64,000 nt of DNA from a virus. The notes below the pieces were generated by a model. The model made no database searches. It worked only from the letters and a program-made list of their open reading frames with translations, and was not told the origin of the DNA. Positions 18,490 to 62,184 of the stretch are shown here, in pieces; the first letter of the stretch is position 1, and every line of letters starts with the position of its first letter. The stretch spans positions 1 through 64,000 of IMG/VR virus record IMGVR_UViG_3300042453_004683; one strand, written 5' to 3'. Position numbers and translations under genes: made by a program.

Positions 18490-18607
18490 GGGGACCTCCA
18501 AGACGAGTAGAGGGAGTTGAGAGGCTTCGACTTGCCTCGCGTCTCCCCGGACTCGCCAGGACCCGCTTTGGGGCTACCCTGTTCGTGCCGGAACGCTGCG
18601 CACACCT

Positions 18608-26631: not shown

Positions 26632-26660
26632 AGCGTAGCCCGGCAGCCGCGAGGCGTCAA
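26632..26660 (-). promoter_or_regulatory. Sigma70-type promoter TTGACG-17-TACGCT
   Basis: Exact spacing; upstream of the operon starting at 26505. Confidence 0.6.
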
Positions 26661-29600
26661 GCCACCTGACGTCGGCGGCCGTCGTGGATGACGACTTCGC
26701 CCGCGTCGCGGCCGGTCACCAGGGCCTTGTGAAGCCGCGCCTCGTGGTCGTTCACGATCCGCTCCTGCCACCGCTTGGCGAGGCCGTCGATCATCTCGAA
26801 GCGTGACATGTCCAGCGTGTAGGTGCGGTGGATGTCGCCGTCGGGGCCGCGGCTCCGCTTCGAGCGCAGCCGGAGACCAGCCGACCGGAGGATCGTCGAG
26901 AGCTGCTGGAAGTCGGACCGGTCGTTGCCGCCGGGGAGGTGGAGGCCCATCTCCGACTGCTCCTTCCGGGCAGCCGCCAGGAGGGTCGGCACGAGGCTCG
27001 GCGGGATCGGGCGAGCGTCGGTCAACAGCCCGTTCTTGCGCATCTCCGCCATCACGTTCGCCACAAGGCGGGCCTGCGGCAGCACCGCGCGGTAGGTGTA
27101 GATCGTCTCGCCGCGGGACCGATCGACCTCGAACATGCCGACCGCCTCGTGCTGCTGCCGCCGGATCAGGAACTGCTGCGCGTAGATCAGCACCTGCCGG
27201 TTCAGCTTGCCGCGGAGCGCCTCGGACACGATCTCCACCTTCTCGTCGTGCGCCGCGCCTTCGTACCGCTGGCCGAACGTCGTCGCGTACCGGGTCGCCA
27301 GCGCGCGGGTCGCCTCCTCCTTCGACCGGGGACCGTTCTTGTTCACGCGGTCCATCGTCGGCTCGTCCAGAAGCTCGGCCGTGGCGACCTCCTCGGCCTT
27401 CTTCCGGTGGATCTCGCGGACCTGCTCGCGCACCAGCTCGGCCTCGCCAGAGGCGTCCAGGGCGGGCCCGACCTTCCCTTCCAGGTCGGCGCCTTCCAGG
27501 AAGACGTGGCAGGTCTGGAGGCAGGCCATCGTCCAGGTGCGGCCCTGGTGGTAGCCGGACGCGATCGAGGCCGCCTGCGCGCAGCCGAGCACCTGGAGGT
27601 TCAGGTCCTGGTGGTACTCGCCGAGCAGGTACGCGGGCGTCACGTTCGAGAGCCGGAGCGCGATCGTCACCGCCTGCTCGTCCGCCTTGTACCGCTGGGT
27701 GATCGCCTGGGGCGACAGCTTCCACGACTCGTTCGCGCGAGACTCGGCCCACAGCGGATCGTGAGCGACGCCGGAGATGAAGATGCACTGGTCGACCGGG
27801 TGGCGGACGCGGTGAAGCATCTGCTCAACCACGGACGCGGATCCGATGAAGTCCTTGCCGACCAGGACGTGCCGGTGGTCGAACCAGTCGCGCTTGTCGA
27901 ACGAGACGCCGGTCGACATCGCGGTGTTGTAGACCAGGGCGTCGACGGCCAACGCCACCTGGCTGAAGTCCTCCGTCTCCTCGTCGCCTTCGGAGCCGAC
28001 GATCACCCGCGCGCGGCGACCCTCGCCCTGCTCGTCGAGGATCTCCTGGATCCGCATCCCGATGGACTGCGCCAGCTTCCGCTCGTAGACGGCCACGGCG
28101 ACACGCTTGCCCGCCTTCACCTGGCGCATGATCAGCTCGATGTGCCGGTCGTTGGAGGACTGCACCGGCTTCTCGTCCTCGTCGCCCTCGTAGATGGCCT
28201 CGACCTCGGCGAACTGCCACTTGTGCTTCGCCGAGGACCACTCCACGAACGGCGTCGGCATCTCGTCCAGGAGGCTCGCCCGCGCGGACAGGATGTCCTT
28301 GATCAGGTTCCGGGTGCCGAGGGAGGCGTGAGCGTCGGCCAAGATCACCTTGTCGGCGTACGCGCAGGAGGCCACCAGCGCGTTGTAGGCGGCCACCGCG
28401 TCGCGGGAGCGGAGCATCGACCAGATCTGCGTCAGCATCTGCTCGACCTCATCGACCAGGATCACGCTGCCGCGCGCCTTCCAGCCGCGGGCGACCGTCT
28501 TGAGCGCGGCGAACGAGCAGGACGTGTCCGCGTCCTCGACCTTCTTGCCAGACCCGCCGGCCGCGTGGTCGATGCCGAGTCGCTCCGCGAGGTTCTTCGC
28601 CAAAGAGACGAAGGGCGACACGGCCAAGATCCGCTGCCGGGCGGTCTTCGCGTCCTTGACAACGCGCTCCATCAGGTGGGTCTTGCCCGTGCCGGTCCGC
28701 GTCGTCAGCAGCAGACGATCAGGGATCTCCGCGGGGAACTCCGCATGGCCGCGCTCGTTGATGTCCAGCATCACCGGCGAGGTGAGGTAGGCACAGTCGC
28801 CGTTGACGTCGCGCTCAGGGATCGCCACCAGCCGGCGGGGCATGTTGTCGGTGCCGATCGTGATGTCCGGCATCGTGCCGTACTTCTCGAAGTCGAACCG
28901 GAACCGCGTGGAGCACTTGAAGCAGACGACCTGGGTGTGCAGGTCGGTGTGCCGGATGGACGTGTTCGACGCGCACAGCGGGCACGGCGAGCGATCCTCG
29001 GGCATCTCTGGCAGCGGCCAGAGGGCGCTCGCCCAGGTGCGGCCCGTGCGAGGCGCGACGGCAGCACGGTCCTTGTCCGCCTTCCGCTGCAAGTTCTCAG
29101 CCACGCGCTCGGCAAGGCGCCGACGGCGCAGCTCCGCCTGCGACACGCGCGGCACCTCCGGCGCCCAGGAAGCCTCAGCCGCGATGCGATCGAACCAGGG
29201 TTCGAGCGACACGACCTCATCGTGCGGCGCCGGGCTGGAGGAGTAGAGGCGGACCTGCTTGCCGGTGACGCGGTGGAGGCTGCCAGGCACCGGGAAGATG
29301 CGGGTGCCGATGTCCTTGGCCGAGTGGTCCCACCACCAGAGCGCGTCGCCCATGTGCGTGTGCCACGCCTTGATGACGGCCTTCATCTTGGTCGGGTTCC
29401 AGCGGGACGCGGGGAAGCCCTCCTCGGAGGGAAGCCAGTAGACGAGGCAGACACCGTGGCCGGTGTAGATGACGCGGTTGGGCCGCTCGGGCAGACCCGT
29501 CTTGGCCGCCTCCGCGCTGACCCGCAGCGCGAACTTGGTGCGCAGAAGCCACGCCACCACGTCGTCCTCGGACATCTCGTACAGCTTCGCCTTCCGCTCG

Positions 29601-29968
29601 GTACGGGTCGCGCCGAACTCGTCGGCGAACGGAGCGTCGCAGATGTCGACGTCGATGGTCAGGGCGGCGACCTTCGCCAGCTCCTGGAACGTCATCTTGT
29701 GGCTCGGGCGCGCGGTCGAGAAGAAGCCGCCACAGGTCATGTCCTGCCAGTGCTTGTCCCCGATGCCCTTGAGACCGCGGACGCGGACCTCAAGGCCGTC
29801 GGGCGGGAGCGGCAGGTAGTCGAAGGGGCGGGTCGGGACGTAGATGGCAGACAAAGCGGGCCGTCCAGGTGAGCGAAGCCATCGTAGCCCGCTGGCGCCC
29901 GCCGCGCAAACGGCCCCTCGCCCGTGTTCGTCCAGGATCCGCTGGTGAGCGGCGGATCTGGCGATCAC
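26657..29968 (-). CDS. Replication protein: RepB'-type primase domain, Zn finger and UL9/CyRepA-like SF2 origin-binding helicase
   Basis: IDVD, TGHG...YWL, D.GTRIFPVPGSLH (primase-like); CPLC...CFKC; TRTGTGKT, LVDEVEQ, ADAH, MSTGVSFD, QMLHRVRH (SF2). Start uncertain, possibly TTG at 29854. Confidence 0.8.
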   Translation of the reverse strand: MIARSAAHQRILDEHGRGAVCAAGASGLRWLRSPGRPALSAIYVPTRPFDYLPLPPDGLEVRVRGLKGIGDKHWQDMTCGGFFSTARPSHKMTFQELAKVAALTIDVDICDAPFADEFGATRTERKAKLYEMSEDDVVAWLLRTKFALRVSAEAAKTGLPERPNRVIYTGHGVCLVYWLPSEEGFPASRWNPTKMKAVIKAWHTHMGDALWWWDHSAKDIGTRIFPVPGSLHRVTGKQVRLYSSSPAPHDEVVSLEPWFDRIAAEASWAPEVPRVSQAELRRRRLAERVAENLQRKADKDRAAVAPRTGRTWASALWPLPEMPEDRSPCPLCASNTSIRHTDLHTQVVCFKCSTRFRFDFEKYGTMPDITIGTDNMPRRLVAIPERDVNGDCAYLTSPVMLDINERGHAEFPAEIPDRLLLTTRTGTGKTHLMERVVKDAKTARQRILAVSPFVSLAKNLAERLGIDHAAGGSGKKVEDADTSCSFAALKTVARGWKARGSVILVDEVEQMLTQIWSMLRSRDAVAAYNALVASCAYADKVILADAHASLGTRNLIKDILSARASLLDEMPTPFVEWSSAKHKWQFAEVEAIYEGDEDEKPVQSSNDRHIELIMRQVKAGKRVAVAVYERKLAQSIGMRIQEILDEQGEGRRARVIVGSEGDEETEDFSQVALAVDALVYNTAMSTGVSFDKRDWFDHRHVLVGKDFIGSASVVEQMLHRVRHPVDQCIFISGVAHDPLWAESRANESWKLSPQAITQRYKADEQAVTIALRLSNVTPAYLLGEYHQDLNLQVLGCAQAASIASGYHQGRTWTMACLQTCHVFLEGADLEGKVGPALDASGEAELVREQVREIHRKKAEEVATAELLDEPTMDRVNKNGPRSKEEATRALATRYATTFGQRYEGAAHDEKVEIVSEALRGKLNRQVLIYAQQFLIRRQQHEAVGMFEVDRSRGETIYTYRAVLPQARLVANVMAEMRKNGLLTDARPIPPSLVPTLLAAARKEQSEMGLHLPGGNDRSDFQQLSTILRSAGLRLRSKRSRGPDGDIHRTYTLDMSRFEMIDGLAKRWQERIVNDHEARLHKALVTGRDAGEVVIHDGRRRQVA

Positions 29969-30567: not shown

Positions 30568-31434
30568 TTGGATCCATTGCACACCGACGAGCGCGGATGG
30601 ACGCTCTACCACGCCGACTACCGCGACACCCTCGGGGCTGTCGCTGCGTCCGGCGGCGCTGACCTCATCGCCTTCAGCCCGCCCTATTGTGACGCACGCT
30701 CCTACGGGATGAGCGTCTCGTGGTGCATGGCCGATTACGCTTCACTCGGTGATGCGGTATTCGCCGCGCTCAAGCCCGGAGGTCACGCGCTGGTCAACGT
30801 CGACGCGCCGGTGCGGGAGTGGCGGCCGGGCTTCGGCACGGAGCGCGGCTTTCACCCGTGGCGCCTGATGCTCGACTGGGCCGAGCGCATCGGCTTCCGA
30901 GTGCCCGACAGGCTGGCGTTCGAGCGTTTGGGCAGTCCTGGCGCCTATAGCGGTCGCTTCCGAAACGACTGGGAACCTTTGATCTGGTTCCAGCGCCCAG
31001 GTGCGAAGGGGTTCTTCGATCGCTGGCCTCTCGCGGAAGATGCTGTCGGTGGCGCGTACGCGGGAAAGAGCGCGAAAGCGCGGAAGGTTGACGGCAGCCA
31101 GAACGTACGAGAGGCGTCGGGGCGCGCAGCCGAAGAAGGAAAGAAGCATCGCGGCACTGTGTGGCACGTCGGACGCGGCCATTCCGGCGCGCCTGACATC
31201 GAGGCTGCCGGGCACCCCGCTCGGTGGCCATACAAGCTCGCCTCCGACATTGTGCTGTGCTTCTCAACTCCTGGTGCGCTTGTCTGCGATCCCTTCGTCG
31301 GTGCGGGGACTACTGCGGCGGCCGCGCTGGCGCATGGGCGACGCTTCGTCGGCGGCGACCTCGGGCTTCGGCAGACCGACGGCGTGCCGTGGGTAACCGT
31401 GGCCGACCGGTTGATGCGGCAAAGGCTCGCCTGA
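30568..31434 (+). CDS. Beta-class N4-cytosine/N6-adenine DNA methyltransferase
   Basis: Motif IV SPPY near the N-terminus; HPARWP and motif I DPFVGAGTT near the C-terminus. Confidence 0.92.
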   Translation: MDPLHTDERGWTLYHADYRDTLGAVAASGGADLIAFSPPYCDARSYGMSVSWCMADYASLGDAVFAALKPGGHALVNVDAPVREWRPGFGTERGFHPWRLMLDWAERIGFRVPDRLAFERLGSPGAYSGRFRNDWEPLIWFQRPGAKGFFDRWPLAEDAVGGAYAGKSAKARKVDGSQNVREASGRAAEEGKKHRGTVWHVGRGHSGAPDIEAAGHPARWPYKLASDIVLCFSTPGALVCDPFVGAGTTAAAALAHGRRFVGGDLGLRQTDGVPWVTVADRLMRQRLA

Positions 31435-41123: not shown

Positions 41124-41407
41124 CGGGCTCTCCTGTGTGAGCGGCGTTGAGTGCCGCGACCACGCCAACGACGTAGCAAGGTGCCCGCCAGCCGTCAAGC
41201 AGCCCAGCTCGTCCAGGTGCGGTAGCCACATACCAACGCCGTCAGGTGGTCCTCCATCAGTATGTTTACCACCCCCTCCGCTGCTCTTTGGCCGGAAAGA
41301 GTCAACGCGCCACTACGCACGCCGCTACGCATTACACGCCGCCCGCCGTACGCGCGAGTACGGTGAACACGCCAGCCGCTACAAACCGCAACACGGCCAA
41401 AGAAGGC

Positions 41408-41429
41408 TGGGCAGCGGCGAAAGTTGACA
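41408..41429 (+). repeat. Dispersed inverted repeat A (TGGGCAGCGGCGAAAGTTGACA)
   Basis: 21/22 match to the reverse complement of 60042-60063. Confidence 0.85.
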
Positions 41430-41543
41430 GGTGGGCGCAGGATACCGCTCATGTTCTGCGAGAATGCGTCAGGGGTCTATCGTAGGGTATATAATCGAAA
41501 TCGCCGAGAACGTGGTAACGAGCGGCGATCTCACCGCCGGGGG

Positions 41544-41566
41544 TGATCCACTATCCTCCTAAGATC
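41544..41566 (+). repeat. Dispersed inverted repeat B (TGATCCACTATCCTCCTAAGATC)
   Basis: 23/23 match to the reverse complement of 60013-60035. Confidence 0.92.
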
Positions 41567-41619
41567 CTATAGACCCGTGCGCCCTGGATCGCGTCCGGCG
41601 TGGACCCCGTAGGGCGGGA

Positions 41620-42330
41620 GCCGGGAGGCTACCGGGCTATGACCTGGCCGGCTGGGTCATGTGCAAGCGGTAGAAGGGGCGGCTGAGACATAGGACATGA
41701 AGTCAACTGGTGCAAGGGGTGTAAGTCAGAAGAAGGGGTCGGGGTGGTGCGCGGCAGCGCACCGGGGGGCGCGACCGGGGGGCCTGGTGGCGGCGCGGCA
41801 GGCGGCGGGCGCGCTTGTGGGTGGGGTGCGGGGTTGTGCGGGGGGCGCCCGCTACCCGGCGGGGGGTGCGCGCTTCCCCTCCCGTCAGGCGGTGTGGCGC
41901 GTGGTAGACCGTGCCCCGTCTCACCCACGGTCGGCGGGCGCGCGGCGGCGGCCCGGACCCGCGGGGTCCTACGCTGCTCACCCCGTGAGGGACCGCGGGG
42001 CAGGGCAGGGGAAGAAGGGGTCAGGGTCGGCGGCGGGCGGGCGGGCGGGCGCCCCGGGCCCCGGGCCTGCGGGCGGACGTGGCCCGTGCTCGCACGCTAC
42101 GGGCCCCAGGAGGCGCGTTGCCCCGGCGGGCGGGCCAGCGGTCGGGCCCCGGCGGGCGGCGCCTGGAAAGGGGCTTCCCGTGCAAGCGCGGGCGTCGGTG
42201 GTAGCCCCTACGTCAGACGGCTACCCGGAACGCGAGAAAGCCCCGACGGGCGGACCGTCGGGGCAGGCGGGGCAGGCGAGGTCAGGCGGGCGCGCGGCGG
42301 GCGGGCGGGCGGGCGGGCGCCCGCGGCGGC
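41620..42330 (+). other. G-tract-rich non-coding region with (GGGC)n runs
   Basis: Many G3-G6 runs; GAAGAAGGGGTCRGGGT at 41729-41745 and 42011-42027; only low-complexity ORFs. Confidence 0.7.
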
Positions 42331-42824
42331 TACGGGCGACGGGCGGCGGGCGACGGGCCCGGGGTCTCAGCAACCCACGTCAGGAGGGCCAGCCCGACAA
42401 GCGCGGCGGCGCCAGCGCCCGACCCTGCGAGGGCGAACCACGGGATCGCGATCGCAAGGGCCAGCGTGCACGCTGCCCCGACGGCGGGCCCGGCGGCATC
42501 GGCCATCGTCGCGCCCGCGGCATCGGCCCAGCGCCCGAAGGCGCGGCGGGCCAGCGCCAGCGCCCCGACGACACCCCCCGCGGCGGCCCCGGCGGTCCGG
42601 GCGGCGGCCCCGATCGCCTTGCGGGGCGTGGTCCGGGCGGACGCGATCACGCGCTGACCGCGGGCCCCGTTCGGGCGGCGGCGGGAGATGACGATCGCGC
42701 ACTCGATGTCAGCGCAGACGGTCCAGAGCCCGACGACGGCGGCAACCGCGAGGGCCAGCGGCGCCAGCGCGAGACAGGCGAGGGAGGCGAGGGTCAAGGC
42801 GAGGGCGGCGGGGACGAGCAGCAT
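42330..42824 (-). CDS. Membrane protein, 164 aa, divergent from the early array
   Basis: ATG at 42824 after ACTTGGAGTGCCTACA (same RBS style as the early genes); hydrophobic N- and C-terminal segments. Confidence 0.6.
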   Translation of the reverse strand: MLLVPAALALTLASLACLALAPLALAVAAVVGLWTVCADIECAIVISRRRPNGARGQRVIASARTTPRKAIGAAARTAGAAAGGVVGALALARRAFGRWADAAGATMADAAGPAVGAACTLALAIAIPWFALAGSGAGAAALVGLALLTWVAETPGPSPAARRP

Positions 42825-43035
42825 TGTAGGCACTCCAAGTTGAGGGGCGGCGGCGCGCCCCGGGGGAACACTCGCCACGTAATGCGGCATCGGATCCGGG
42901 CAAGGCGAGATTAGCGCACAAGCGACGGAAAGTTGAAAGCGTCGGGCGGGCGGGCGCTTTCGACGATCGGCGGGCGGAGTGTTCACCGCTTTCACCGTTA
43001 TATCTGTAGGGCCCGACGGCGGGCGGCGGGTGGTC

Positions 43036-43196
43036 CTCGAGAAGCTCGAGCCTATCGGCATTCTCGAGAATGGGATCCTCGAGCGGCGCGCGGCTGGGCT
43101 CGAGCGGCGGCGGGGTCAGCTCGCGAGCGGGTCAGCTCGACAGACGGGCGGGCGGAACTCGACACTCGACACGGGCGGGCGGGCTCGACACTCGGA
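43036..43196. repeat. Cluster of CTCGAG (x5) and CTCGAC (x4) hexamers
   Basis: CTCGAG at 43036, 43045, 43063, 43078, 43099; CTCGAC at 43136, 43158, 43165, 43184. Confidence 0.9.
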
Positions 43197-43236
43197 TCGC
43201 CCCCAAGTACTGCGACCAGGTTGTGTACCTGTATCT

Positions 43237-43379
43237 TATGCTGCAACGCAGCATGACCATAAACGATGGATCACCTTGCTCTATGGATCGCGCTGATCGG
43301 CATTCTCGACAATCGAGGGTCGGCCCTATGCTGCAACGCAGCATGACGGGCCAGGTCCTATGCTGCACCGCAGCATGAC
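43237..43379. promoter_or_regulatory. Three palindromic operator-like sites TATGCTGCA(A/C)CGCAGCATGAC
   Basis: 21 bp copies at 43237-43257, 43327-43347 and 43359-43379; core ATGCTGC-N3-GCAGCAT. Confidence 0.8.
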
Positions 43380-43460
43380 GGCTGGAAGGTCGAGAACGTC
43401 GGCCCTATGCGGATCGTAGCGGTTTCTATCGCTTGCCTACAAATATCTGCCCCGCTCCCC

Positions 43461-43489
43461 TTGGCGGCGGCGAGCGCCCGCCATATGAT
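43461..43489 (+). promoter_or_regulatory. Early promoter TTGGCG-17-TATGAT with upstream AAATATCT
   Basis: Exact spacing; AAATATCT also precedes the promoter at 46559. Confidence 0.65.
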
Positions 43490-43561
43490 GTCTGTGCCAC
43501 CCAGCGGCGCGCCCGACGCGCCCGCTCCCCTCCCCTCCCCTCCCCCTCCGGAGTGTGCCCC

Positions 43562-43873
43562 ATGACCGATCCCGCGCTTGACCCCCGCTGCTCCTCCTGG
43601 ACCTTCAATGCGGACGGTACGCTGACCGTCCGGGCCCCCGCGGGGCAGGAGCGCCCCATTCGGGCCCTCATGGCGGCTATGGGCTACGTCTGCCCCATCG
43701 TGGAAGACATGCCCGATGGTAGCGTGCTCATGCACGATTCCCGCGCGATTGTCGAGATCTTCAATGACTGGCCCGTCAGCGGCCGCCGGTGCGACCCCGA
43801 CCCCGAGGCCCCCGGCGGGCCGTGGTATGACGGCCCGGATCGCTGCGTGGTCGACGTGCTCAACCGCTACTGA
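43562..43873 (+). CDS. Early hypothetical protein, 103 aa
   Basis: ATG at 43562 after GGAGTGTGCCCC. Confidence 0.7.
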   Translation: MTDPALDPRCSSWTFNADGTLTVRAPAGQERPIRALMAAMGYVCPIVEDMPDGSVLMHDSRAIVEIFNDWPVSGRRCDPDPEAPGGPWYDGPDRCVVDVLNRY

Positions 43874-43876
43874 CCT

Positions 43877-43988
43877 GCCCGCCCCCTTGCGGGGGCCCCG
43901 CGTTTGCCCTATCGGTATGCGTACTGGTAGGGCATACCCGGCGCCCCGGCCCGGATTGTGCGTTTCACCTATTGGAGTGTTCCCGATG
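43877..43988 (+). repeat. Intergenic hairpin/RBS module, copy 1
   Basis: GCCCGCCCCCTTGCGGGGGCCCCGCG, then a 13 bp hairpin (43905-43934), CCCGGCGCCCCGGCCCGGATTGTGCGTTT and TGGAGTGTTCCCGATG. Confidence 0.85.
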
Positions 43989-44195
43989 TCCCGTCGAACG
44001 ATGGTTGAGATTGTTGATTGCTACGAGGATCCCGCGCTTGCTGCGGGGCGCGCGTGGCTTGAGGCCCGCCGGGAAGCGGATCGCCTCAGCGCGATCGCGC
44101 GGCATACCCCGTCCTATGCGGACCGGGCCCGCCGGGCCCGTGAGGATGTCGCCTTGCTTGAGGCCCTCATCCACCAGAAGTACGGTACCCCGTAG
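43986..44195 (+). CDS. Early hypothetical protein, 69 aa
   Basis: ATG at 43986 at the end of module copy 1. Confidence 0.7.
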   Translation: MSRRTMVEIVDCYEDPALAAGRAWLEARREADRLSAIARHTPSYADRARRAREDVALLEALIHQKYGTP

Positions 44196-44311
44196 CCCGC
44201 CCCCTTGCGGGGCCCCGCGCTTGACGGATCGGCGTCGTGTCGATCCGTCAACCCCGGCGCCCCGGCCCGGATTGTGCGTTTGCTTTCAACCTGTATGGAG
44301 TGTTCCCTATG
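44195..44311 (+). repeat. Intergenic hairpin/RBS module, copy 2
   Basis: Same flanking blocks as copy 1 with a different-sequence 14 bp hairpin (44221-44251). Confidence 0.85.
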
Positions 44312-44797
44312 TCCACCGACACCCGTTACCGCGTCCTCTGCGCCGATGTCTCCCCCCTCGACCACGGCGGTACGTTCTACCGCGGCAACCTGACCGATGG
44401 GTTTGACGTGTTTGAAGTACAGCCCGTCGTCGCCTTTGTGGGCGAAGACGAGGCGGCCGATGTCGGTTTCCCCTTCTGGAGCCGTGAGTCCTTCCACGAT
44501 CGGGAGGACATCGCCGCTACCCTGTCCGATCGGCTCACTCTCGGGTACGTCGGCGCCGATCGGCTGCTCGGTCGCGATGTCGACAGCCTGACGGACGCTG
44601 AGATCCTTGAGGTTGTGTACGCTCGCCATGCGGTCGGCTGCGGTACCGACGAGGGCCCCGCGGGGTGGAGCGCGGATCTCCCCCTTGAGGATCTCGGGAT
44701 CGATCCCGCTGACGGCGCGGCGGCCGATGATGACTTTCGGCGCGATGTCCTCGGGGAAGACGACGACACCGACGACGACACCGACGACGGCGAATAG
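44309..44797 (+). CDS. Highly acidic early protein, 162 aa
   Basis: ATG at 44309; Asp/Glu-rich, ends EDDDTDDDTDDGE. Confidence 0.75.
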   Translation: MSTDTRYRVLCADVSPLDHGGTFYRGNLTDGFDVFEVQPVVAFVGEDEAADVGFPFWSRESFHDREDIAATLSDRLTLGYVGADRLLGRDVDSLTDAEILEVVYARHAVGCGTDEGPAGWSADLPLEDLGIDPADGAAADDDFRRDVLGEDDDTDDDTDDGE

Positions 44798-44950
44798 CAG
44801 CCCCGCCCCCGCCCACCGTCGGCGGGTCGCCCCGATGACACCGGCTTAGCCGCTGGTGTCATCCGGCCGGCTCACCCTGAACGGTTGTTCATGGCCCGGA
44901 TCCGTCAGTCAACCTGGCGCCGTTGCGCGCCTATGCCCGGAGTGTTCCCT

Positions 44951-45277
44951 ATGTCCGATGTCAAGCCGCCCCGCCTCCCCCCGATCGATACCCTCGCCCG
45001 CATCGTGGCCGATGTCCGGCGGGATCTCTACCGCTACGACGCTGACGACGTGCCCTATATCCAAGTCACGATCGGGATCGACGGCCGCGGCGGGTGGGGC
45101 TACCAGACGGGCGATAACTCGTATTCCGGCGCGGCCTACCACTACCCGTACTGGGGTGTCGCCGAAGTCTACCGCCGGCGCGACGTGCGCGAGACCGCGC
45201 GAGACGTGGCCCGTCAGCTCCGCAACGATGCCGCAGAAGCGTACTGGGCCAGCGAACCCTACGCCCCCCGCGAGTAA
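44951..45277 (+). CDS. Early hypothetical protein, 108 aa
   Basis: ATG at 44951 after GGAGTGTTCCCT; motif WGYQTGDNSYSGAAY. Confidence 0.75.
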   Translation: MSDVKPPRLPPIDTLARIVADVRRDLYRYDADDVPYIQVTIGIDGRGGWGYQTGDNSYSGAAYHYPYWGVAEVYRRRDVRETARDVARQLRNDAAEAYWASEPYAPRE

Positions 45278-45373
45278 GCCCCCGCTGGCGCCCGCCGTCC
45301 CCTCCCGTTCCCCTCTCAACCCGCCCGCCCCGGCGCCGTCAGCCGGCGGGCCCCTCAATACGGAGTGTTTCCT

Positions 45374-45769
45374 ATGCCCTACCGCCCCGCGCCGTTCACC
45401 GGCTACCGCAAGGCCCTCTATGTCTATGTCCGCACGACGTTCAATGGCGCGCCCGCCGTCGTCTGGGGCGGCTACCCGCCCGCCGGCGCGGGCGTGGCGA
45501 GCGTCAACGTCCCCGACCCCGCCCGCTGGACCGGCAAGCGGCGGGTCAACGTCCCCTATCTGGGGCTGCCCCTCAAGCTACAGGCGCTGTTCATCGGCCG
45601 GATCGTCTGGGCCCGCGCGCTTCACCGGCGCCGGCACGCCCTCCCCTGTCTGTCCTGCTACAACCCCGGCCCCGCGCCCCGCCCGCGTGACAGCCGGGGC
45701 CGGTTCGCCCCGCTCCCCGACGCGCCGCCCGTGGCCTACTGGCAACCGCCCCGCCCGTGGAACGGGTAG
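45374..45769 (+). CDS. Basic early hypothetical protein, 131 aa
   Basis: ATG at 45374 after GGAGTGTTTCCT. Confidence 0.65.
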   Translation: MPYRPAPFTGYRKALYVYVRTTFNGAPAVVWGGYPPAGAGVASVNVPDPARWTGKRRVNVPYLGLPLKLQALFIGRIVWARALHRRRHALPCLSCYNPGPAPRPRDSRGRFAPLPDAPPVAYWQPPRPWNG

Positions 45770-45912
45770 CCCCGCCCGGTAGCTTCCCCGCCCCGTCGGG
45801 GCGCCCCGCCGGTACCACGGCTGACCCGCCGATCGTGGTACCCGCCGGCCGCTGGCCCGATGTCTCTCCCTCAACCCCCGGCGCCGCCGCGCGCCTCCCT
45901 CAGGAGCGTTCC

Positions 45913-46110
45913 ATGCGCAACCGCCCCGCCCATTCGGGCTTGCACGTTCTCGACTACTACAACCCCGCCCGGACCACGGCCGACCCCGACGGCTGGCGCG
46001 ACCGCGAGACCGCCCGCGGCCGCCGCGCCCGCCGCCGCGGGTACGCCCGCGCGGAGCGGATCGATCGCGCCCTCGCCGCCGCCGACGCGGCCGCCGGGGG
46101 TGCCCGGTGA
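45913..46110 (+). CDS. Arg-rich early hypothetical protein, 65 aa
   Basis: ATG at 45913 after AGGAGCGTTCC. Confidence 0.6.
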   Translation: MRNRPAHSGLHVLDYYNPARTTADPDGWRDRETARGRRARRRGYARAERIDRALAAADAAAGGAR

Positions 46111-46514
46111 GCGCCCGTGTAACCGTCGGCGGCCCCTCCCCCGCCGCGCCCCCCGAGCTGGGGCCCTACGCCCAGCGGATCGCCGTCATCCGCCCGCTGC
46201 TCACCGGGGAGCGCGCCGAGGTCTGGACCTATGGCGGCGACGGGATCGCGATCGTCAGCGTCGACAAGCCGCGCGGCCGGTCCGCCGGTGGGCGCGTGGT
46301 CTTCGCCGCCACCGGCTACCCGCAGAGCGTCAGGCGCTTCGGCGACATTGGGATCGCGGGTAACGTGTTTGACTATGGTCTTTACTGGGCCGACGAGTCC
46401 GCCGATCTCGCGGCCGCCGAGGATGTCACGATCGATCGCGCGTGGTGGGGCTCTGCCCTCGCCGACGCGGCCGCCGGCGCCGTATTCGCTGCGGCTGAGC
46501 GCGCCGGCCGGTAG
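46107..46514 (+). CDS. Early hypothetical protein, 135 aa
   Basis: GTGA overlap with the previous gene. Confidence 0.6.
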   Translation: MSARVTVGGPSPAAPPELGPYAQRIAVIRPLLTGERAEVWTYGGDGIAIVSVDKPRGRSAGGRVVFAATGYPQSVRRFGDIGIAGNVFDYGLYWADESADLAAAEDVTIDRAWWGSALADAAAGAVFAAAERAGR

Positions 46515-46558
46515 CTGCCCCGGCACGGGGGAAAGATTAGAAATATCTCCCCCGGCCC

Positions 46559-46587
46559 TTGACCCCCTCCCCTCAGTCAGATATAAG
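46559..46587 (+). promoter_or_regulatory. Early promoter TTGACC-17-TATAAG
   Basis: Exact spacing; AT-rich upstream element AAAGATTAGAAATATCT. Confidence 0.7.
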
Positions 46588-46647
46588 AGTGTATCACCCG
46601 GCGGGCAGACAACCCCCCGCCGCTTCCCCTCCCCGGAGTGTGTCATC

Positions 46648-46983
46648 ATGGCGTTCCCTTCCGTAAAGACCCTTACCACGCGCCTCCCCCTGTCCGCCGA
46701 TCAGGCCGCCGAGCTTCGGAAACTCGCCGCCGACGGGCGCAAGCCCGGGGTCATCCTCGCCGCCGCCGATCGGATGCTCGGCGCGCATGGTGTGGAGCGT
46801 ATCGTGCCCGACCGGGCCATGAATGACCCGTGGTGCGCGGACCGTGGGATCCGCTACGTCAACCGCGGCGATAGCTACGATGACACCCTGATCCACGACA
46901 CCCGCCGGGATACGTGGCGCGTCTGTAGCTGGGCGGGCATCATCGAGGCGCAGCCCGCCCGGTTCAACGGCGCCGGCTTCTAA
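46648..46983 (+). CDS. Early hypothetical protein, 111 aa
   Basis: ATG at 46648 after GGAGTGTGTCATC; motif GAHGVE...YVNRGDSYDDTL...W. Confidence 0.75.
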   Translation: MAFPSVKTLTTRLPLSADQAAELRKLAADGRKPGVILAAADRMLGAHGVERIVPDRAMNDPWCADRGIRYVNRGDSYDDTLIHDTRRDTWRVCSWAGIIEAQPARFNGAGF

Positions 46984-47059
46984 CGCTGTAGCTGGCTCCC
47001 TCCCCCGCCGGGCGCGGTCCGCCCGGCCTGTCCCTGTAACTCTGTCCCTATGGTGACCT

Positions 47060-47308
47060 ATGGTGATCTTCATTGTCGCGCGTGAGTACTTCCGTTCCGC
47101 CGGGCACACTGTCCAGGGCATCACTTGGGCGGCCTACCTTGACGGTGAGCGCGTCGGCGGCGGCTACCTGCCCCCCGACGCGGTGAGCGGGAACCACGCT
47201 GCGCGGTATCGCGTCAATCAGGCGGCCGTGGCGGCCGGTCTCGGCGACATCGCCGCCGCAGCGTGCGAGATCGTGCGCGTCCCCGTCAACCGGTTGCGCG
47301 ACGCTTAG
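47060..47308 (+). CDS. Early hypothetical protein, 82 aa
   Basis: ORF in the array; weak RBS. Confidence 0.55.
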   Translation: MVIFIVAREYFRSAGHTVQGITWAAYLDGERVGGGYLPPDAVSGNHAARYRVNQAAVAAGLGDIAAAACEIVRVPVNRLRDA

Positions 47309-47346
47309 GCCCCTCCGTCTCAACGTCCACACTTGGAGTACGCATC

Positions 47347-47766
47347 ATGCCCCGCCCCCGTCTCGTGCCCGCCCACGCCCTCCGCGCCGCCGTCCCCGGC
47401 GCGGCGCTCCCCGAATGGGCCCGCCGCCACAACCGCGCCGTGTTCGATCCGCAGGGCTTCGAGCTGCCGATCGTGTTGCTCTGGCGCGCGATCGTGTCGG
47501 CCCCCGACCTGCCCGTCAGCCGGCAGACGGCAACCACGATCCGCGCGCGCTACGCCGCCGAGCACCGGCACCGCTACGGCTCCCCCGTCACCGATGATTG
47601 CGTCATCGGGGAGGCGCTGGCCGCCGCCCTCGCCCCGGACGGCACCGCCGCCGAGCGGCTCAACGCCGCCGCCGACCTGCTCAACGGGGAGATCGGCCGC
47701 CTCGACGGCGGTACCCTGTCCGGCCTGCTCGTGGCCGCCGCGGCCCGCGCGGGCGTGACCCTGTAG
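47347..47766 (+). CDS. Early hypothetical protein, 139 aa
   Basis: ATG at 47347 after TTGGAGTACGCATC; motif LLNGEIGRLDGGTL. Confidence 0.7.
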   Translation: MPRPRLVPAHALRAAVPGAALPEWARRHNRAVFDPQGFELPIVLLWRAIVSAPDLPVSRQTATTIRARYAAEHRHRYGSPVTDDCVIGEALAAALAPDGTAAERLNAAADLLNGEIGRLDGGTLSGLLVAAAARAGVTL

Positions 47767-47807
47767 CAGGGCCGCCCGACGGCGAACGGCGCCCGCCGAC
47801 AACGGCG

Positions 47808-47913
47808 CCGGCATCGAGTGCATTAGCCGTGGCAGTACGGGTAACCCGCATGGGGCGGGTGACCTGGCCGCCTATGGCTACACGCCCGACCCTTCCGGCT
47901 GCAATGATGCCGG
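47808..47913 (+). ncRNA. Putative structured RNA element (nested long hairpin)
   Basis: CCGGCATCG/TGATGCCGG, TAGCCGTGG/CTATGGCTA and GGTAACCCGC/GCGGGTGACC pair concentrically, with G-U pairs on the plus strand. Confidence 0.45.
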
Positions 47914-47950
47914 ACAGCGCCCCGGGGAATGGGGAGACAGGGAACGCACA

Positions 47951-48589
47951 ATGTCTGACCGTAGCAGCACCACGCTCACCCGTCAGGGTTTCCACGTCAC
48001 CATCATGGCGGAGGTTGACCCCTTCGCCTGCGCCGTGTCCGAACTGGCCGACCGGGGGCACGTCGTCCAGACGTGGCAGGGCCCGTATCACGGGTGGGCG
48101 ACCTTCACCCCCGGCCAGCCGCGCCGGGACGATCGGGGCGTGACCCACAACCGCCCGCCCCGCCCCTCCTCGTGCGGGGGGAACTGGCGCGTCGTCAAGG
48201 CCGCCGGCCCGTCTCAGGGTGACAGCTACCGGATCTGGTACAACGCCGACGAGATCCCCGCCGACGAGCGCGCCGCCTTCGCCGACAACGCGGCGGCCAT
48301 GATGAACGGTACGGTGTCCGCCTATGGGCTGACCGTCGAGATCCGCGCGACGCCCGGCGGCTCGGTACTCGCGGAGTCGGCCCTGTTCGGGTTCTGGATC
48401 GAGTACCGCCCCGACGGTGCCACCCTCATTCAGGAGGCCGACGGCGCCGGCATGATCGACGAGGCGATCCACAAGGCCCGCCGCAACGCAGCCGCCGCCG
48501 TCACCCGCCTGCGCGCCGAGGCCGACACGATCGCCGCGGCCATGCGCCGGGACGCCGACGCGATCGCCGCGGTCTGCGCGGGCGTGTAG
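47951..48589 (+). CDS. Early hypothetical protein, 212 aa
   Basis: ORF with RBS and consistent codon usage. Confidence 0.7.
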   Translation: MSDRSSTTLTRQGFHVTIMAEVDPFACAVSELADRGHVVQTWQGPYHGWATFTPGQPRRDDRGVTHNRPPRPSSCGGNWRVVKAAGPSQGDSYRIWYNADEIPADERAAFADNAAAMMNGTVSAYGLTVEIRATPGGSVLAESALFGFWIEYRPDGATLIQEADGAGMIDEAIHKARRNAAAAVTRLRAEADTIAAAMRRDADAIAAVCAGV

Positions 48590-52062: not shown

Positions 52063-52353
52063 ATGCAGACCGACACCCCGGCCGTCCCCGCCGATGTCCT
52101 CGACCGCGCCCGCGCCCTCGCGCGTGGCAGCTACCAGCGCAGCCTCCTCGACGGCTACGCCCGCTGGTCGGGCGCCGACCTGCGCGGCGCCGCGAAGCGG
52201 TGGAGCGGGCGGTACGCCGCCTCCCGCTCCGGCCTGTTCCGCCGCCTGCGCAAGGCGGGCCTCGACGTGGCCGTGCGCTACGTCACCACGTCCAACAACC
52301 GGCAGGCCGTCGCGCTCTGCCTGGCGGGCGTGCCCGTCAGCGCGGTACCGTAG
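52063..52353 (+). CDS. Basic hypothetical protein, 96 aa
   Basis: ATG at 52063 after TGGAG; motif YQ..LLDG..RWSGADLRG. Confidence 0.7.
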   Translation: MQTDTPAVPADVLDRARALARGSYQRSLLDGYARWSGADLRGAAKRWSGRYAASRSGLFRRLRKAGLDVAVRYVTTSNNRQAVALCLAGVPVSAVP

Positions 52354-52354
52354 C

Positions 52355-52549
52355 ATGGCACCCGCGTGGTACACCTCCGCCAACCTGGCGGGGCTGGCTC
52401 TGGCCGCGCTGGTCTGCGCCATCGCAAACGTCGGGCTCGGCGTCGTGCTCGGACACGGCGACGAGCACTACCCCGCCGCCGTGGTCTGCGCGGTGGTCGG
52501 GTTCTTCCTGACACTGCTCGCCAAGGCGGCGAGCAACGACGGCCTGTAG
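52355..52549 (+). CDS. Small protein with two transmembrane segments, 64 aa
   Basis: Two hydrophobic helices; starts 1 nt after the previous stop. Confidence 0.6.
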   Translation: MAPAWYTSANLAGLALAALVCAIANVGLGVVLGHGDEHYPAAVVCAVVGFFLTLLAKAASNDGL

Positions 52550-52598
52550 CGGGCTGCCGCGCCCCGCTGTGCTGTTCCCTTCACCTCTGGAGTCTCCA

Positions 52599-53006
52599 AT
52601 GACCGCCGCCCCCGCCGCCTTCGACCCCTCCGCCGACAACACCCTTCCGCCTCCCCCGGAGACCATCGTGCTCGACTTCTACGTCATCGACAACATCCGC
52701 CGCCTCCCCCTCACCGTCGGCCCCAACGGTACCCCGTGCCCGACGGTGGGCTTCACGGACGATCCGCCCCAGGTCTTCCAGTCCCCCGACATCGACGGCG
52801 ACCTCACCGTCCGCGTGGTCCGCCGCCACGTCGGCGCCACGGGCGACGTGGAGTGGGTCGACGTGGGCGACCCCGCCTACTCCCTCAAGGAGTTCCGCGC
52901 CATCACCGCCGGGCTGGTGTGCGACGGTGCGCTGACCCGCGCCGAGGCCGACGCGCTGGTCAACGAGGCGGCGGCGCTGATCGCCCGCCCGCAGGTGAGC
53001 GAGTGA
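52599..53006 (+). CDS. Hypothetical protein, 135 aa
   Basis: ATG at 52599 after TGGAG. Confidence 0.7.
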   Translation: MTAAPAAFDPSADNTLPPPPETIVLDFYVIDNIRRLPLTVGPNGTPCPTVGFTDDPPQVFQSPDIDGDLTVRVVRRHVGATGDVEWVDVGDPAYSLKEFRAITAGLVCDGALTRAEADALVNEAAALIARPQVSE

Positions 53007-53296
53007 GGCTCGCCCGCGCCCGCCGGCGGCTGACGCTACGCGGGCTGGTCGCCCTGCGGCCCACCGGGTTCGTCCGGCTGCCGATGGTGGCCGGCACCGT
53101 GCCGCGGCTGGTCCATCGGAGCAACGGGATGTTGTTCCTCGTGGTCCGCGAGGACCGCGTGTTCCCCGACATCGGCCGCTTCGGCCTGTCCATCGTCGAC
53201 TACGTGCCCCGCCTCGACGGGCGGGCCAGCATCCGGCTGACCCGCCGCTGGCGCGGCTGCGCGGCCGATGGTACTGGTGTCGAGCTGCCCTTCTGA
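53003..53296 (+). CDS. Basic hypothetical protein, 97 aa
   Basis: GTGA overlap. Confidence 0.55.
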   Translation: MRLARARRRLTLRGLVALRPTGFVRLPMVAGTVPRLVHRSNGMLFLVVREDRVFPDIGRFGLSIVDYVPRLDGRASIRLTRRWRGCAADGTGVELPF

Positions 53297-53332
53297 TTGT
53301 GTGATGACACTCACCCCTGGAGCACTGACACC

Positions 53333-53602
53333 ATGCCCCTCGCCCCCTACAACACGTCCCTCGACCTGCCCACCCTGTCCGGCATCCTGCCCGCCGACTT
53401 CGACCCGACCCTCTGGTCGACGCCGGAGCTGCGCGAGTACCCCGCCGACCCGACCTCGCCGGCCATCTGCGACGTGATGCTCTACTCGATCCACCTGGAC
53501 ACGCGCCGCTACGTCAACGTCGCCTTCGGGCGTGACCTCGCGGACATCATCGACCGGAACCCAGCGCACGCCGCCTGGATCAAGTCGGCGGTGAAGAAGT
53601 GA
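53333..53602 (+). CDS. Hypothetical protein, 89 aa
   Basis: ATG at 53333 after TGGAG. Confidence 0.7.
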   Translation: MPLAPYNTSLDLPTLSGILPADFDPTLWSTPELREYPADPTSPAICDVMLYSIHLDTRRYVNVAFGRDLADIIDRNPAHAAWIKSAVKK

Positions 53603-53765: not shown

Positions 53766-54653
53766 ATGTTGACCATCGAACTCGACTACCTCGGCGTCCT
53801 CGGCAACCTCGTCGAACTGGCAGGGTCCGGTCACGTCCGCCGCGGGCGAACCTCGACCCCGTGGGTGTCATTGTCGGCGCCCATCTTCATCGACTTCTAC
53901 GTCGGCGCCGGCTGCCGGCTGCCGCTCCTGACCACCAAGAAGATGCACACGCGCAGCATCCTCGCCGAGCTGGTCTGGTTCCTGCGCGGCGACACCAACG
54001 TGCGCTGGCTCCAGGCGCACGGCGTCACCATCTGGGACGAGTGGGCCGACGCCGCCGGCAACCTCGGCCCCGTCTACGGCCACCAGTGGCGGCGCTGGCG
54101 CGACGAGCGCAGCGGCACCAGCATCGACCAGGTGCAGCGCGTCATCGACGGCTGGCTTCGCGACCCCTACGACCGCGGCCTGGTCGTGTCCGCCTGGAAC
54201 GTGGCCGACCTCGGCTCGATGGCGCTCCGTCCGTGCCACTACGCATGGCAGATCACCTGCCCGGAGCCGGGCGTGATGGACATCCACGTTCAGCAGCGCA
54301 GCGCCGACTGGTTCCTCGGCGTGCCGTACAACCTGGCCTCGTACTCGGCGCTCCTGATCCTGCTCGCCAAGGCGGTCGGCGTCACGCCAGGCACCGTCTG
54401 GTGGAGCGGGGCCGACTGCCACCTGTACCTGAACCACGTCGAGGCCGCGCAGCGGCAGTTGGCGGTGCGGGCTGCGGCGCTGGAGAGCGCGTTCACGGGC
54501 ACGGACAGGTACACCGCCCCGTGCCTCGTCGTCTCGGACGAGGCCGACATCTACTACGCCGTCACCGACGAGGGCGCGTTGACGCTGGACATGTTCGAGG
54601 TGACCGGCTACAACCCCGTGGGCCCGGTGATCCGTGCGCCCGTCGCCGTGTAG
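53766..54653 (+). CDS. thyA: Thymidylate synthase
   Basis: PLLTTKK, ELVWFLRG, IWDEWA, LGPVYGHQWR, catalytic LRPCH, QRSADWFLGVPYN, DCHLYLNH; start ATG at 53766. Confidence 0.96.
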   Translation: MLTIELDYLGVLGNLVELAGSGHVRRGRTSTPWVSLSAPIFIDFYVGAGCRLPLLTTKKMHTRSILAELVWFLRGDTNVRWLQAHGVTIWDEWADAAGNLGPVYGHQWRRWRDERSGTSIDQVQRVIDGWLRDPYDRGLVVSAWNVADLGSMALRPCHYAWQITCPEPGVMDIHVQQRSADWFLGVPYNLASYSALLILLAKAVGVTPGTVWWSGADCHLYLNHVEAAQRQLAVRAAALESAFTGTDRYTAPCLVVSDEADIYYAVTDEGALTLDMFEVTGYNPVGPVIRAPVAV

Positions 54654-60795: not shown

Positions 60796-62184
60796 CTACC
60801 CGCTGCCGAACAGCGCCCCGCGGAAGCTGTAGCCGAGGATCGCCGTCTGCCGGCCCCCGATGATGAACTCACGGGCGGTCTGGCAGGCGGCGATCCAGTC
60901 GTTTCCGGCGGCGGCGCGCTTGCCCGTGGCGGACACGTCCACCAGGACGAGCCCCTCCTCCGCCCACTGGCGGAGCAGGACGTTGGCGTTGTTGCCCGTC
61001 TCGCGCGCCCACTGGAGCATCTTCGGCGCGGTGACGAACCCGTCCTCGCCAGGCGACACGGGCCACGCCCCAACGAGCGTCTCCTGCCCGCTGTAGCCGA
61101 GGCCAAGCACCCGGCTCGGCTGGCTCGCCATCCAGGACAGCAGGCCCGCGAGGGCGTGCGCGCCCCGGTCTGTGGCGCCCGCGGTCACCGCGACGCAGGA
61201 CCGCAGCTCCTCGATGAGCGCGAGAGTGTCGACGGGAGCAGCGATCGTGGCGTCGGCGTTCACCATCTCGGCTGCCAGCGCGATGAGCGCGGCGTACCGC
61301 GCGACCCGCCGGACGGTCGCATCCGTCTCGGCTGTACCACCGGCAAACACCGTATGCCACTTGGCGAACTGCCCGACCAGGCGGTTGAGCCCGCCGTCCT
61401 TCGACCGGACGATGCGAACTGCGGCGACGGCGAAACGCTGCCCGATGTGCCCGCTGCCGGCGGCGATCTGCACCTTCAGCGCGGCGACGTCCCGGCCGGC
61501 CTCGGCGGATACGCCCCCGAAAGGCGACCGCGGCAGTGGCAGCAGGCGCGCCTTGGCCCCCGTCCGCGTGCGGGTGAGGTTGAGCAGCAGCTCCTCGTTG
61601 GTCGAGGCCGCGATGGAGTGCCACTCGCGGACGCCTCCCGTCGCGTCGTGCGTGAACCTCCCCTCCTGGAAGGCGTACACGAAGTCGAGGAACGTGGCCG
61701 CGCCGCCCTTGTCGGTGCGCGCCTGCCCCTCGTTGACCAGGAGCGGCAGGTTGCGGAGGACGGCCGCGTGCCGGAGGAGCGCCGCGTCCTTGGTGCGCCA
61801 GCTCTCGCGGAGGCAGCCGGGCGCGCCCCACATGCTCTCCATCGCGGAGAGCGCCACGGTCTTCCCGGTGCCGGACGGTCCGCCGATGTCGAGCACGAAG
61901 GGCTCGATGTCCGCCCCGGCCTCGCGGAGCGGCTCGATGAGGATGGACGCGAGGCTGGCGAGGCACGCGACCTGGAGGCCCGGGTAGCGGCGGACGATCT
62001 CCCAGGCGGCGACCGACGCGGACGGGTCGCCCGTCGGGCGGATCTTGCTGTACGGGAACGTCGACCGCGCCGGCGGGATGAACTTCGGCGCGTGCGGCAT
62101 CGCCGGTCCGAGGCGAAGCGCGGGCAGCATGAAGTGGCCGGTCGGCTGGAACCCGTAGTGGTGCGTCTTGCTTTGATCTGCCAT
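60796..62184 (-). CDS. DUF927 / Cch-like AAA+ replicative helicase, 462 aa
   Basis: GPSGTGKT, SMWGAP...SWRT, LPLLVNE, W..IAASTNE, GAKARLL, GHIG. TATGCT lies 6 nt before the ATG (leaderless). Confidence 0.78.
   Translation of the reverse strand: MADQSKTHHYGFQPTGHFMLPALRLGPAMPHAPKFIPPARSTFPYSKIRPTGDPSASVAAWEIVRRYPGLQVACLASLASILIEPLREAGADIEPFVLDIGGPSGTGKTVALSAMESMWGAPGCLRESWRTKDAALLRHAAVLRNLPLLVNEGQARTDKGGAATFLDFVYAFQEGRFTHDATGGVREWHSIAASTNEELLLNLTRTRTGAKARLLPLPRSPFGGVSAEAGRDVAALKVQIAAGSGHIGQRFAVAAVRIVRSKDGGLNRLVGQFAKWHTVFAGGTAETDATVRRVARYAALIALAAEMVNADATIAAPVDTLALIEELRSCVAVTAGATDRGAHALAGLLSWMASQPSRVLGLGYSGQETLVGAWPVSPGEDGFVTAPKMLQWARETGNNANVLLRQWAEEGLVLVDVSATGKRAAAGNDWIAACQTAREFIIGGRQTAILGYSFRGALFGSG

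Follow-up and report, generated by a model that had tools for sequence, protein, structure and literature searches.

Clustered CTCGAG sites in a phage genome purged of this hexamer belong to a conserved CTCGA(C/G) repeat array between divergent gene arms

Iteron-type replication origins, such as phage lambda ori and those of iteron plasmids, are the natural basis of comparison for a short array of direct repeats in non-coding phage DNA. Short repeat arrays also reportedly lie beside the terminal repeat of phage T7, as Dunn and Studier are said to have described in 1983, and in short-terminal-repeat podoviruses (T7/N4-type) the genome ends lie at the head of the early-gene arms. In phage P1, the pac site spans 161 bp and contains seven TGATCA/G repeats (PMC10028697), and its cleavage is gated by Dam methylation (PMC10028697, PMC12707154). 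The locus described here was first noticed because it groups five CTCGAG (XhoI) sites within 70 bp, and the first-pass annotation had proposed that the palindrome itself was retained as a methylation- or cleavage-sensitive switch comparable to P1 pac. As shown below, what relatives of this phage conserve is a repeat with CTCGA as its core, in which the palindrome is one of two interchangeable forms.

The stretch of DNA studied (the window) covers 64 kb from the start of an IMG/VR viral contig (G000), which is 94,133 bp long and has a GC content of 69.5%. Gene calls were made with a GC3-based heuristic, which missed two methyltransferase genes. The main genome for comparison was G001, an IMG/VR relative of 96,570 bp with a 73% identical portal. 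The two genomes were collinear at an offset of about +10 kb, and their small-gene block (31-54 kb) was not alignable at the DNA level. A giant ORF of G001 encoding 3,729 aa matched both ends of the G000 contig, indicating that G000 is a nearly complete circle, broken within this gene. The giant protein had no Pfam, PHROG, or PDB-sequence match, and a protein atlas gave weak leads only, to "(large) polyvalent protein" domains. An N4-like reading, with the giant protein as virion RNA polymerase and three hairpins beside the array as its promoters, had no family match in its support and was dropped. The ribonucleotide reductase of G001 (L019:7679-10165, minus strand) gave a weak match to an intein-splicing domain, below the Pfam cut-off. 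Since no integrase or resolvase was found above threshold in G000, the phage is probably virulent. Among 50,697 records of cultured phages, none matched G000 in its DNA or portal, and contig scans of isolate and MAG genomes found no relatives. The clade consists of uncultured, very divergent, roughly 95-kb GC-rich phages whose early genes nearly all lack a known family.

Hexamer counts against a Markov expectation over the whole contig gave five CTCGAG sites where 55.0 were expected. All five lay in the cluster (43036, 43045, 43063, 43078, and 43099), so the first-pass claim that the sites are grouped here and missing elsewhere holds over the full 94,133 bp and is stronger than originally made; the chance of five uniformly placed sites falling within 69 bp is about 1e-12. 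For the 64-kb window, dinucleotide shuffles predicted 38.4 ± 5.8 sites. G001 contained a single CTCGAG compared to 68.3 expected. The suspected absence of CTGCAG was also correct (0 vs 19 expected in the window and 0 vs 17.8 in the contig), and CTAG was absent from both G000 and G001, with about 103-105 expected (0 vs 103 in G000). The same avoidance was seen in codon choice, as had been proposed from Leu-Glu pairs. None of the 103 Leu-Glu dipeptides in G000 was written CTC-GAG (44 expected), and all seven Glu codons following CTC were GAA, although just 9% of all Glu codons are GAA; in G001, CTC-GAG was used 0 times compared to 49 expected, and GAA followed CTC in 13 of 13 cases.

The purge was specific for palindromes: it affected 15 of the 38 palindromic hexamers testable in G000, compared to 3 of 1277 non-palindromic ones, and the corresponding numbers for G001 were 21 of 37 and 2 of 1272. 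Together, the 15 purged palindromes of G000, of which CTCGAG is one, had 15 sites left where 391 were expected. The restriction-type avoidance suggested by the first-pass annotation is therefore real. One of the three purged non-palindromes was CTCTTC, an EarI/SapI-type Type IIS site (0 vs 18 expected in G000). Synonymous sites of G000 and G001 were near saturation (same codon in 67.0%, compared to a random expectation of 60.8%), yet CTC-GAG was missing from the Leu-Glu pairs of both genomes, which argues that the purge has been kept up by selection in both lineages and was not merely inherited. It follows that the surviving CTCGAG sites are probably constrained.

Leftover purged palindromes were enriched in the variable small-gene block, with 11 of 15 in G000 (p = 7e-5) and 18 of 37 in G001 (p = 4e-4), and the enrichment persisted without CTCGAG. 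It is independent of gene calls, whereas the noncoding counts of leftover palindromes overstate the non-coding survivors owing to the missed methyltransferase genes. The contig carries four DNA methyltransferase genes rather than the three first noted. Two of them contain surviving purged palindromes (TGGCCA at 31225 and GCATGC at 33567), which suggests that these genes were acquired recently. No XhoI-family nuclease was encoded in G000 or G001.

The five CTCGAG sites make up the left half of an array of ten cores (Table 1), in which CTCGA is unchanged, the flanks vary, and GGGCGG-type spacers are interleaved. The other elements listed in the first-pass annotation were all present, i.e., four CTCGAC copies (43136, 43158, 43165, and 43184), a 14-bp palindrome enclosing one CTCGAG (CATTCTCGAGAATG, 43059-43072), and a pair of ATCGGCATTCTCGA(G/C)AAT boxes at 43054 and 43296. 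Further core copies lay outside the array, namely a fifth CTCGAC at 43305 and GTCGAG at 43389. Three of the CTCGAG sites had G..C-type flanks or a palindromic context, two as GCTCGAGC (43044 and 43098) and one within the 14-bp palindrome. With nine CTCGAS in 200 bp, the array was the densest window of the genome for this motif. Successive cores were spaced by 9, 18, 15, 21, 21, 16, 22, 7, and 19 bp, and helical phasing was thus only partial. The G-rich spacer GGGCGGGCGG often preceded core copies, and eight of its ten plus-strand copies in the contig were found at 42.0-43.2 kb; ACTCGACAC did not recur in the contig. The single-strand fold of the array was unremarkable (z = -0.7), and the array therefore most likely acts as duplex DNA. 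A coding role was rejected because indels between relatives were not multiples of three and because all 16 gene-43 homologues use the short start, which also means that an extended 243-aa ORF at 42330-43061 is not real.

TABLE 1 Coordinates of features in the contig and its control region (TRF, Tandem Repeats Finder)
Feature	Position	Strand	Remarks
Major head protein	17338-18501		
Large terminase	18717-20426		T4-type headful enzymes nearest, weakly (22-26% identity)
Portal, SU10-type	20439-22136		
Helicase/Rep-like replication protein	26657-29854		
N6/N4 DNA methyltransferase	30568-31434		
C5 DNA methyltransferase	33468-34343		
Gene 43	42330-42824	-	Small hydrophobic basic protein, 164 aa; only flanking gene conserved, family of 16
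Left flank and gene-43 leader	42825-43026	-	Strongly conserved in L057 and L058
Iteron array	43036-43190	+	10 same-orientation cores: five CTCGAG, CTCGCGAG at 43120, four CTCGAC
Five CTCGAG sites	43036-43104	.	Sole copies in G000 contig
19-nt repeat, first copy	43054-43072	+	ATCGGCATTCTCGAGAAT
21-bp tandem unit, x2.2	43078-43123	+	CTCGAGCGGCG...; TRF
27-bp tandem unit, x1.9	43144-43194	+	ACGGGCGGGCGG-NN-CTCGACACTCG; TRF
7-bp ACTCGAC tandem	43157-43172	+	Within 27-bp unit; TRF
Right array boundary	43192-43219	+	Conserved; CTCGGATCGCCCnCAAGTAC..CCAGG
AT-richest 100-bp window of contig	43215-43314	.	49% GC vs 69.5%; directly right of array
Three 17-bp palindromes/hairpins	43238-43376	+	ATGCTGC-A(A/C)C-GCAGCAT; starts 43238, 43328, 43360; z = -3.2
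19-nt repeat, second copy	43296-43314	+	CTCGAC version, then ATCGAG; 242 bp from first
Sigma-70-like promoter match	43461-43489	+	TTGGCG-17-TATGAT; consensus match only; ahead of gene 44; sole match in 2.7 kb
Gene 44	43553-43873	+	First rightward small gene; probable ATG 43562; no family; not conserved in G001
ThyA-like enzyme	53766-54653		
Primase-helicase	60796-62184		
D12/Dam-like DNA methyltransferase	69075-70004		
C5 DNA methyltransferase	77436-78383		
Giant 3,729-aa ORF (G001)	L015:2780-13969	minus	G000 counterpart split: window 2-4240 and contig 88747-94038

The array was located, as the first-pass annotation had it, in the main divergent intergenic region, which spans 730 bp between gene 43 and gene 44; genes to its left run leftward and those to its right run rightward. 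None of the neighbouring genes had a family match or was recognisable as a regulator. The left flank contained GAAAGCG..CGCTTTC, a tandem TTCACCG at 42982 and 42991, and a ACCGTTATATCTGTAGGGCCCGACGG block, and the array began about 25 bp from a conserved TATATCTGTAGGG block of the gene-43 leader. To the right of the array followed, in order, the AT-rich window, the three palindromes, the promoter match, a C-rich tract, and gene 44. By their sequence, the palindromes may be operator-like or hairpin elements. The CTCGACA copy at 43305 could be read from the sequence as TCGACA-15 nt-TATGCT. Rfam and tRNA scans of the region were empty, and the GC skew followed the coding strand, i.e., the direction of transcription, with no origin signal.

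To the left of gene 43, a 1.1-kb stretch (41232-42329) contained G-rich blocks and no convincing gene, and the control region thus extends over about 2.2 kb with gene 43 as its sole gene. The equivalent gene-poor gap in G001 was 1.2 kb (52287-53464). A TTGACA..TATATAAT-like patch in this stretch (41424-41495) was the second AT-richest window of G000. G-quadruplex motifs were distributed asymmetrically, with five of seven on the plus strand at 41.8-42.4 kb (41819-42357), where (GGGC)3-4 runs at 42035 and 42299 flank the 3' end of gene 43, and six of eleven on the opposite strand at 43.5-48.2 kb (43512-48166). The template strand thus carries the G-runs in either arm, and C-rich tracts would appear in the transcripts. 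Rightward early genes of both phages had C-rich tracts (CTCCCCTCCCC) a short distance upstream of their ribosome-binding sites, in G000 at 43525-43545, 49267, and 49605 and in G001 at 54377 and 56518. Of the 16 plus-strand copies of CCCTCCCC in G000, 13 lay at 43.5-51.5 kb, including copies at 45.6-51.5 kb.

A metagenome scan with the alignment of the 16 gene-43 homologues gave four contigs. A homologous control region was present in four sequences, the close relatives L057 and L058, which are short contigs, and the distant relatives G001 and L060, and the array was compared across these and G000, i.e., five sequences in two subclades. IMG/VR motif scans with the 17-nt hairpin, GGGCGGGCGGGCTCGAS, and a 26-nt left-flank block returned chance hits or G001 only, and scans with gene 44, gene 35, and the gene 43 pair gave nothing useful.

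Conservation in L057 and L058 covered the gene-43 leader as far as ACCGTTATATCTGTAGGGCCCGACGG and also the right boundary (CGGATCGCCCnCAAGTAC); between these flanks, the array differed from that of G000 by indels and C/G swaps. It consisted of five CTCGAC and one GTCGAC, three of the CTCGAC forming a 7-bp tandem, and contained no CTCGAG. About 55 bp holding the first CTCGAG copies were extra in G000, and in the aligned copies CTCGAG of G000 stood opposite CTCGAC. G001 and L060 had a single copy, GGGCGGGCGGGCTCGAGCTTCGCCCGG (conserved GGGCGGGCGGGCTCGAG), which provides the only CTCGAG in the 96.6 kb of G001. The 33 nt around this site were identical between G001 and L060, while the flanks showed substitutions and a 14-nt indel. 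Between G000 and G001, whose control regions span 2.2-2.4 kb, the best common word in these regions was CGGGCGGGCGGGCTCGA (G000 43172-43188, 17 of 17 identical), and GAAGCTCGAGCC of G000 was the exact reverse complement of GGCTCGAGCTTC in G001. The AT-richest 100-bp window of the genome abutted the element in both G000 and G001, and in G001 the two AT-richest windows flanked it. Over all five sequences, CTCGA was invariant in 22 array copies, and position 6 was C in 15 and G in 7.

An element containing CTCGA(G/C) was thus found at the same place in all four relatives, with a copy number that varied among them, and its positional conservation indicates that it is likely functional DNA rather than a product of chance. 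The cluster of CTCGAG itself was not conserved: its methylatable palindromes numbered five in G000, none in L057 and L058, and one each in G001 and L060. Because the close relatives write the array as CTCGAC, the conserved unit is a CTCGA(C/G) iteron with a G-rich partner and not the XhoI palindrome. It is probably the repeat that matters, and not the restriction site.

Other elements of the control region also differed between relatives. In L058 (1-80, reverse), the three palindromes of G000 were replaced by TAGACAC-CG-GTGTCTA and TAGACA-CGGT-TGTCTA, i.e., the palindromic form was retained and the sequence swapped. The replacements hold three CTAG, the tetramer absent from both complete genomes, a second case of a purged word that persists in the control region alone. 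CCATGG, absent from G000 and depleted in G001 (6 vs 26 expected), occurred six times within roughly 1.1 kb of L060 early DNA (reverse strand; at about 980-1110 of the upstream sequence, and at 53 and 381). G001 and L060 carried TGTTTCAC-C-GTGAAACA (L017:14082-14098; G001 54082-54098), the universal parS palindrome with one central base added, which avoids the purged CACGTG; G000 had at 42982-42999 only the tandem TTCACCG..TTTCACCG. No ParB_N domain was detectable in G000 or G001.

We tentatively read the array as a set of protein-binding iterons, most likely of origin type, while giving this reading distinctly less than even confidence. The five CTCGAG would be copies of a short iteron with the invariant core CTCGA and C or G as the sixth base. 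At least ten same-orientation copies, partly arranged as 21-, 27-, and 7-bp tandems, would form a duplex-DNA array on which a sequence-specific DNA-binding protein loads, giving a multi-copy protein-DNA complex. Binding of this kind is suggested by the invariant core with variable flanks, the uniqueness of the locus, its fixed boundaries, its varying copy number, and its deep retention, and the constancy of the core amid changing flanks argues for binding sites rather than a recent duplication. Replication origin would be the likeliest role, since in their layout the iterons adjoin the most AT-rich and most easily melted patch of the genome. The XhoI palindrome would then arise incidentally wherever the iteron has G as its sixth base, and CTCGAG may survive there because the core is unchangeable and a tight cluster is effectively one vulnerable locus.

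Several observations weigh against an origin. No candidate for the binding protein was recognised among the neighbouring genes, which lack family matches, and the two replication genes (helicase/Rep-like and primase-helicase, Table 1) are 13-17 kb away, whereas a cognate initiator would be expected near the repeats. The single copy in G001 and L060 is too few for a classical iteron origin, and the partial helical phasing also counts against one. An adjoining AT-rich region, as needed for unwinding, was found in both G000 and G001, but the same would be expected of promoters. A regulator array is nearly as likely as an origin-type function.

It is accordingly possible, though on balance unlikely, that the array is transcriptional, with a phage or host regulator bound to the CTCGA(C/G) copies to switch divergent early promoters, in cooperation with the three ATGCTGC-N3-GCAGCAT operators and with the pair of ATCGGCATTCTCGA(G/C)AAT boxes, which lie 242 bp from each other. 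The position of the array between leftward and rightward gene arms fits this, as do the closeness of its start to the TATATCTGTAGGG block of the gene-43 leader, the operator-like palindromes and then the sigma-70-like promoter to its right, and the TCGACA-15 nt-TATGCT arrangement created by the copy at 43305. Moreover, no T7-type RNA polymerase was found in the phage, in a search that was weak in that its control matched no control genome, and host RNA polymerase therefore probably transcribes the region. On the other hand, at least ten same-orientation copies, including 7-bp tandems, would be unusual for operators, no regulator gene was recognisable nearby, and the promoters are consensus matches only, with one in 2.7 kb.

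A role in packaging is doubtful. Here, the terminase small subunit or an end-processing complex would bind the array, and the genome would end in or near it. A unique short-repeat array heading two arms of small early-type genes, an SU10-type portal, and the P1 pac precedent (PMC10028697) are compatible with such a role, and both L057 and L058 stop about 70-100 bp to the right of the array. However, G000, G001, and L060 assembled straight through it; a 127-bp terminal repeat of G001 lies elsewhere, inside a gene, and looks like an assembler circle; and the large terminase gene is 23 kb away, its nearest, weakly similar enzymes being of the headful type.

We consider it similarly improbable that the repeats expanded without a function of their own, the G variant having spread by slippage or conversion in a variable early block that turns over fast by recombination, and being either not yet purged or carried in a host without an XhoI-type enzyme. 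The enrichment of leftover purged palindromes in the variable block of both genomes makes this somewhat plausible, and the first CTCGAG copies lie in the roughly 55 bp absent from L057 and L058, in an array whose copy number differs between relatives. Against it, the flanks of the five copies are dissimilar, as they would not be after recent duplication of one unit, the element is kept across subclades with near-saturated synonymous sites, and a purge maintained by selection should quickly remove cost-free G variants.

Least probable is the original proposal of a deliberately retained CTCGAG switch that responds to methylation or cleavage. Such a switch would act as a pac site, genome end, or origin, and either a host XhoI-type system or a phage methyltransferase would read it. 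By analogy with P1, the purged hexamer could serve as a unique genomic address whose state of methylation or cleavage is sensed by a CTCGAG-reading protein, which is a very unlikely arrangement; it is just as unlikely that such a protein, which might stem from an XhoI-type restriction-modification system or a phage methyltransferase or might interact with one of them, makes origin firing, early transcription, or packaging depend on this state. In favour of the switch, no other CTCGAG remains in either of two genomes in which continuing selection purges the hexamer, palindromic extensions occur at four of six independent sites (GCTCGAGC, CATTCTCGAGAATG), the phage carries four methyltransferases, and methylation-gated cleavage has its precedent in P1 pac (PMC10028697, PMC12707154), but the palindrome as a switch was not supported, since the homologous array of L057 and L058 is CTCGAC only and that of G000 half CTCGAC, neither G000 nor G001 encodes an XhoI-family nuclease, the terminase gene is about 23 kb from the array, and a phage methylase protecting CTCGAG would make the genome-wide purge unnecessary.

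Where restriction-type sites are purged genome-wide, the few that survive mark DNA that selection keeps unchanged, and in this phage they point to an unannotated control element, be it an origin, a regulator array, or a packaging site. Searching for clustered survivors of purged palindromes could find functional non-coding elements widely in phage genomes. If the palindrome were read after all, the locus would add a new case in which a phage developmental switch is made from a restriction or methylation site, and reading CTCGAG as an address would amount to a pac-like epigenetic gate that uses a restriction site purged from the rest of the genome.

Like P1 pac, the locus in G000 groups short repeats with methylatable palindromes into about 160 bp, and the phage has methyltransferases of its own. 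It differs in that P1 pac lies inside pacA while the terminase gene is 23 kb distant here, in that the palindrome is not conserved in close relatives, and in that P1 shows no purge of GATC, in contrast to the removal of CTCGAG from the rest of this genome. As in the restriction-site avoidance of virulent phages (reviewed in PMC12707154), depletion in this probably virulent phage was strong, palindrome-specific, and visible in synonymous codons; in contrast to that pattern, all survivors of one purged hexamer sit in one repeat array, and the sole CTCGAG of a distant relative is kept in the same element.

The short repeat arrays beside the T7 terminal repeat share with the present array imperfect repeats of 7 bp and a non-coding location where the early region of a podovirus-like phage begins; their sequences are unrelated, and no T7-type RNA polymerase was detected here. 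Iteron origins such as lambda ori and those of plasmids differ from the array in that its core is only 6-7 bp, some copies form 7-bp tandems, its spacers are rich in G, an initiator gene is missing next to and around it, and distant relatives have a single copy. The likeness, which is one of sequence layout, is that in both cases short repeats in the same orientation share an invariant core and are spaced partly by about two helical turns, at a locus unique in the genome with an AT-rich patch alongside and a copy number that varies between relatives.
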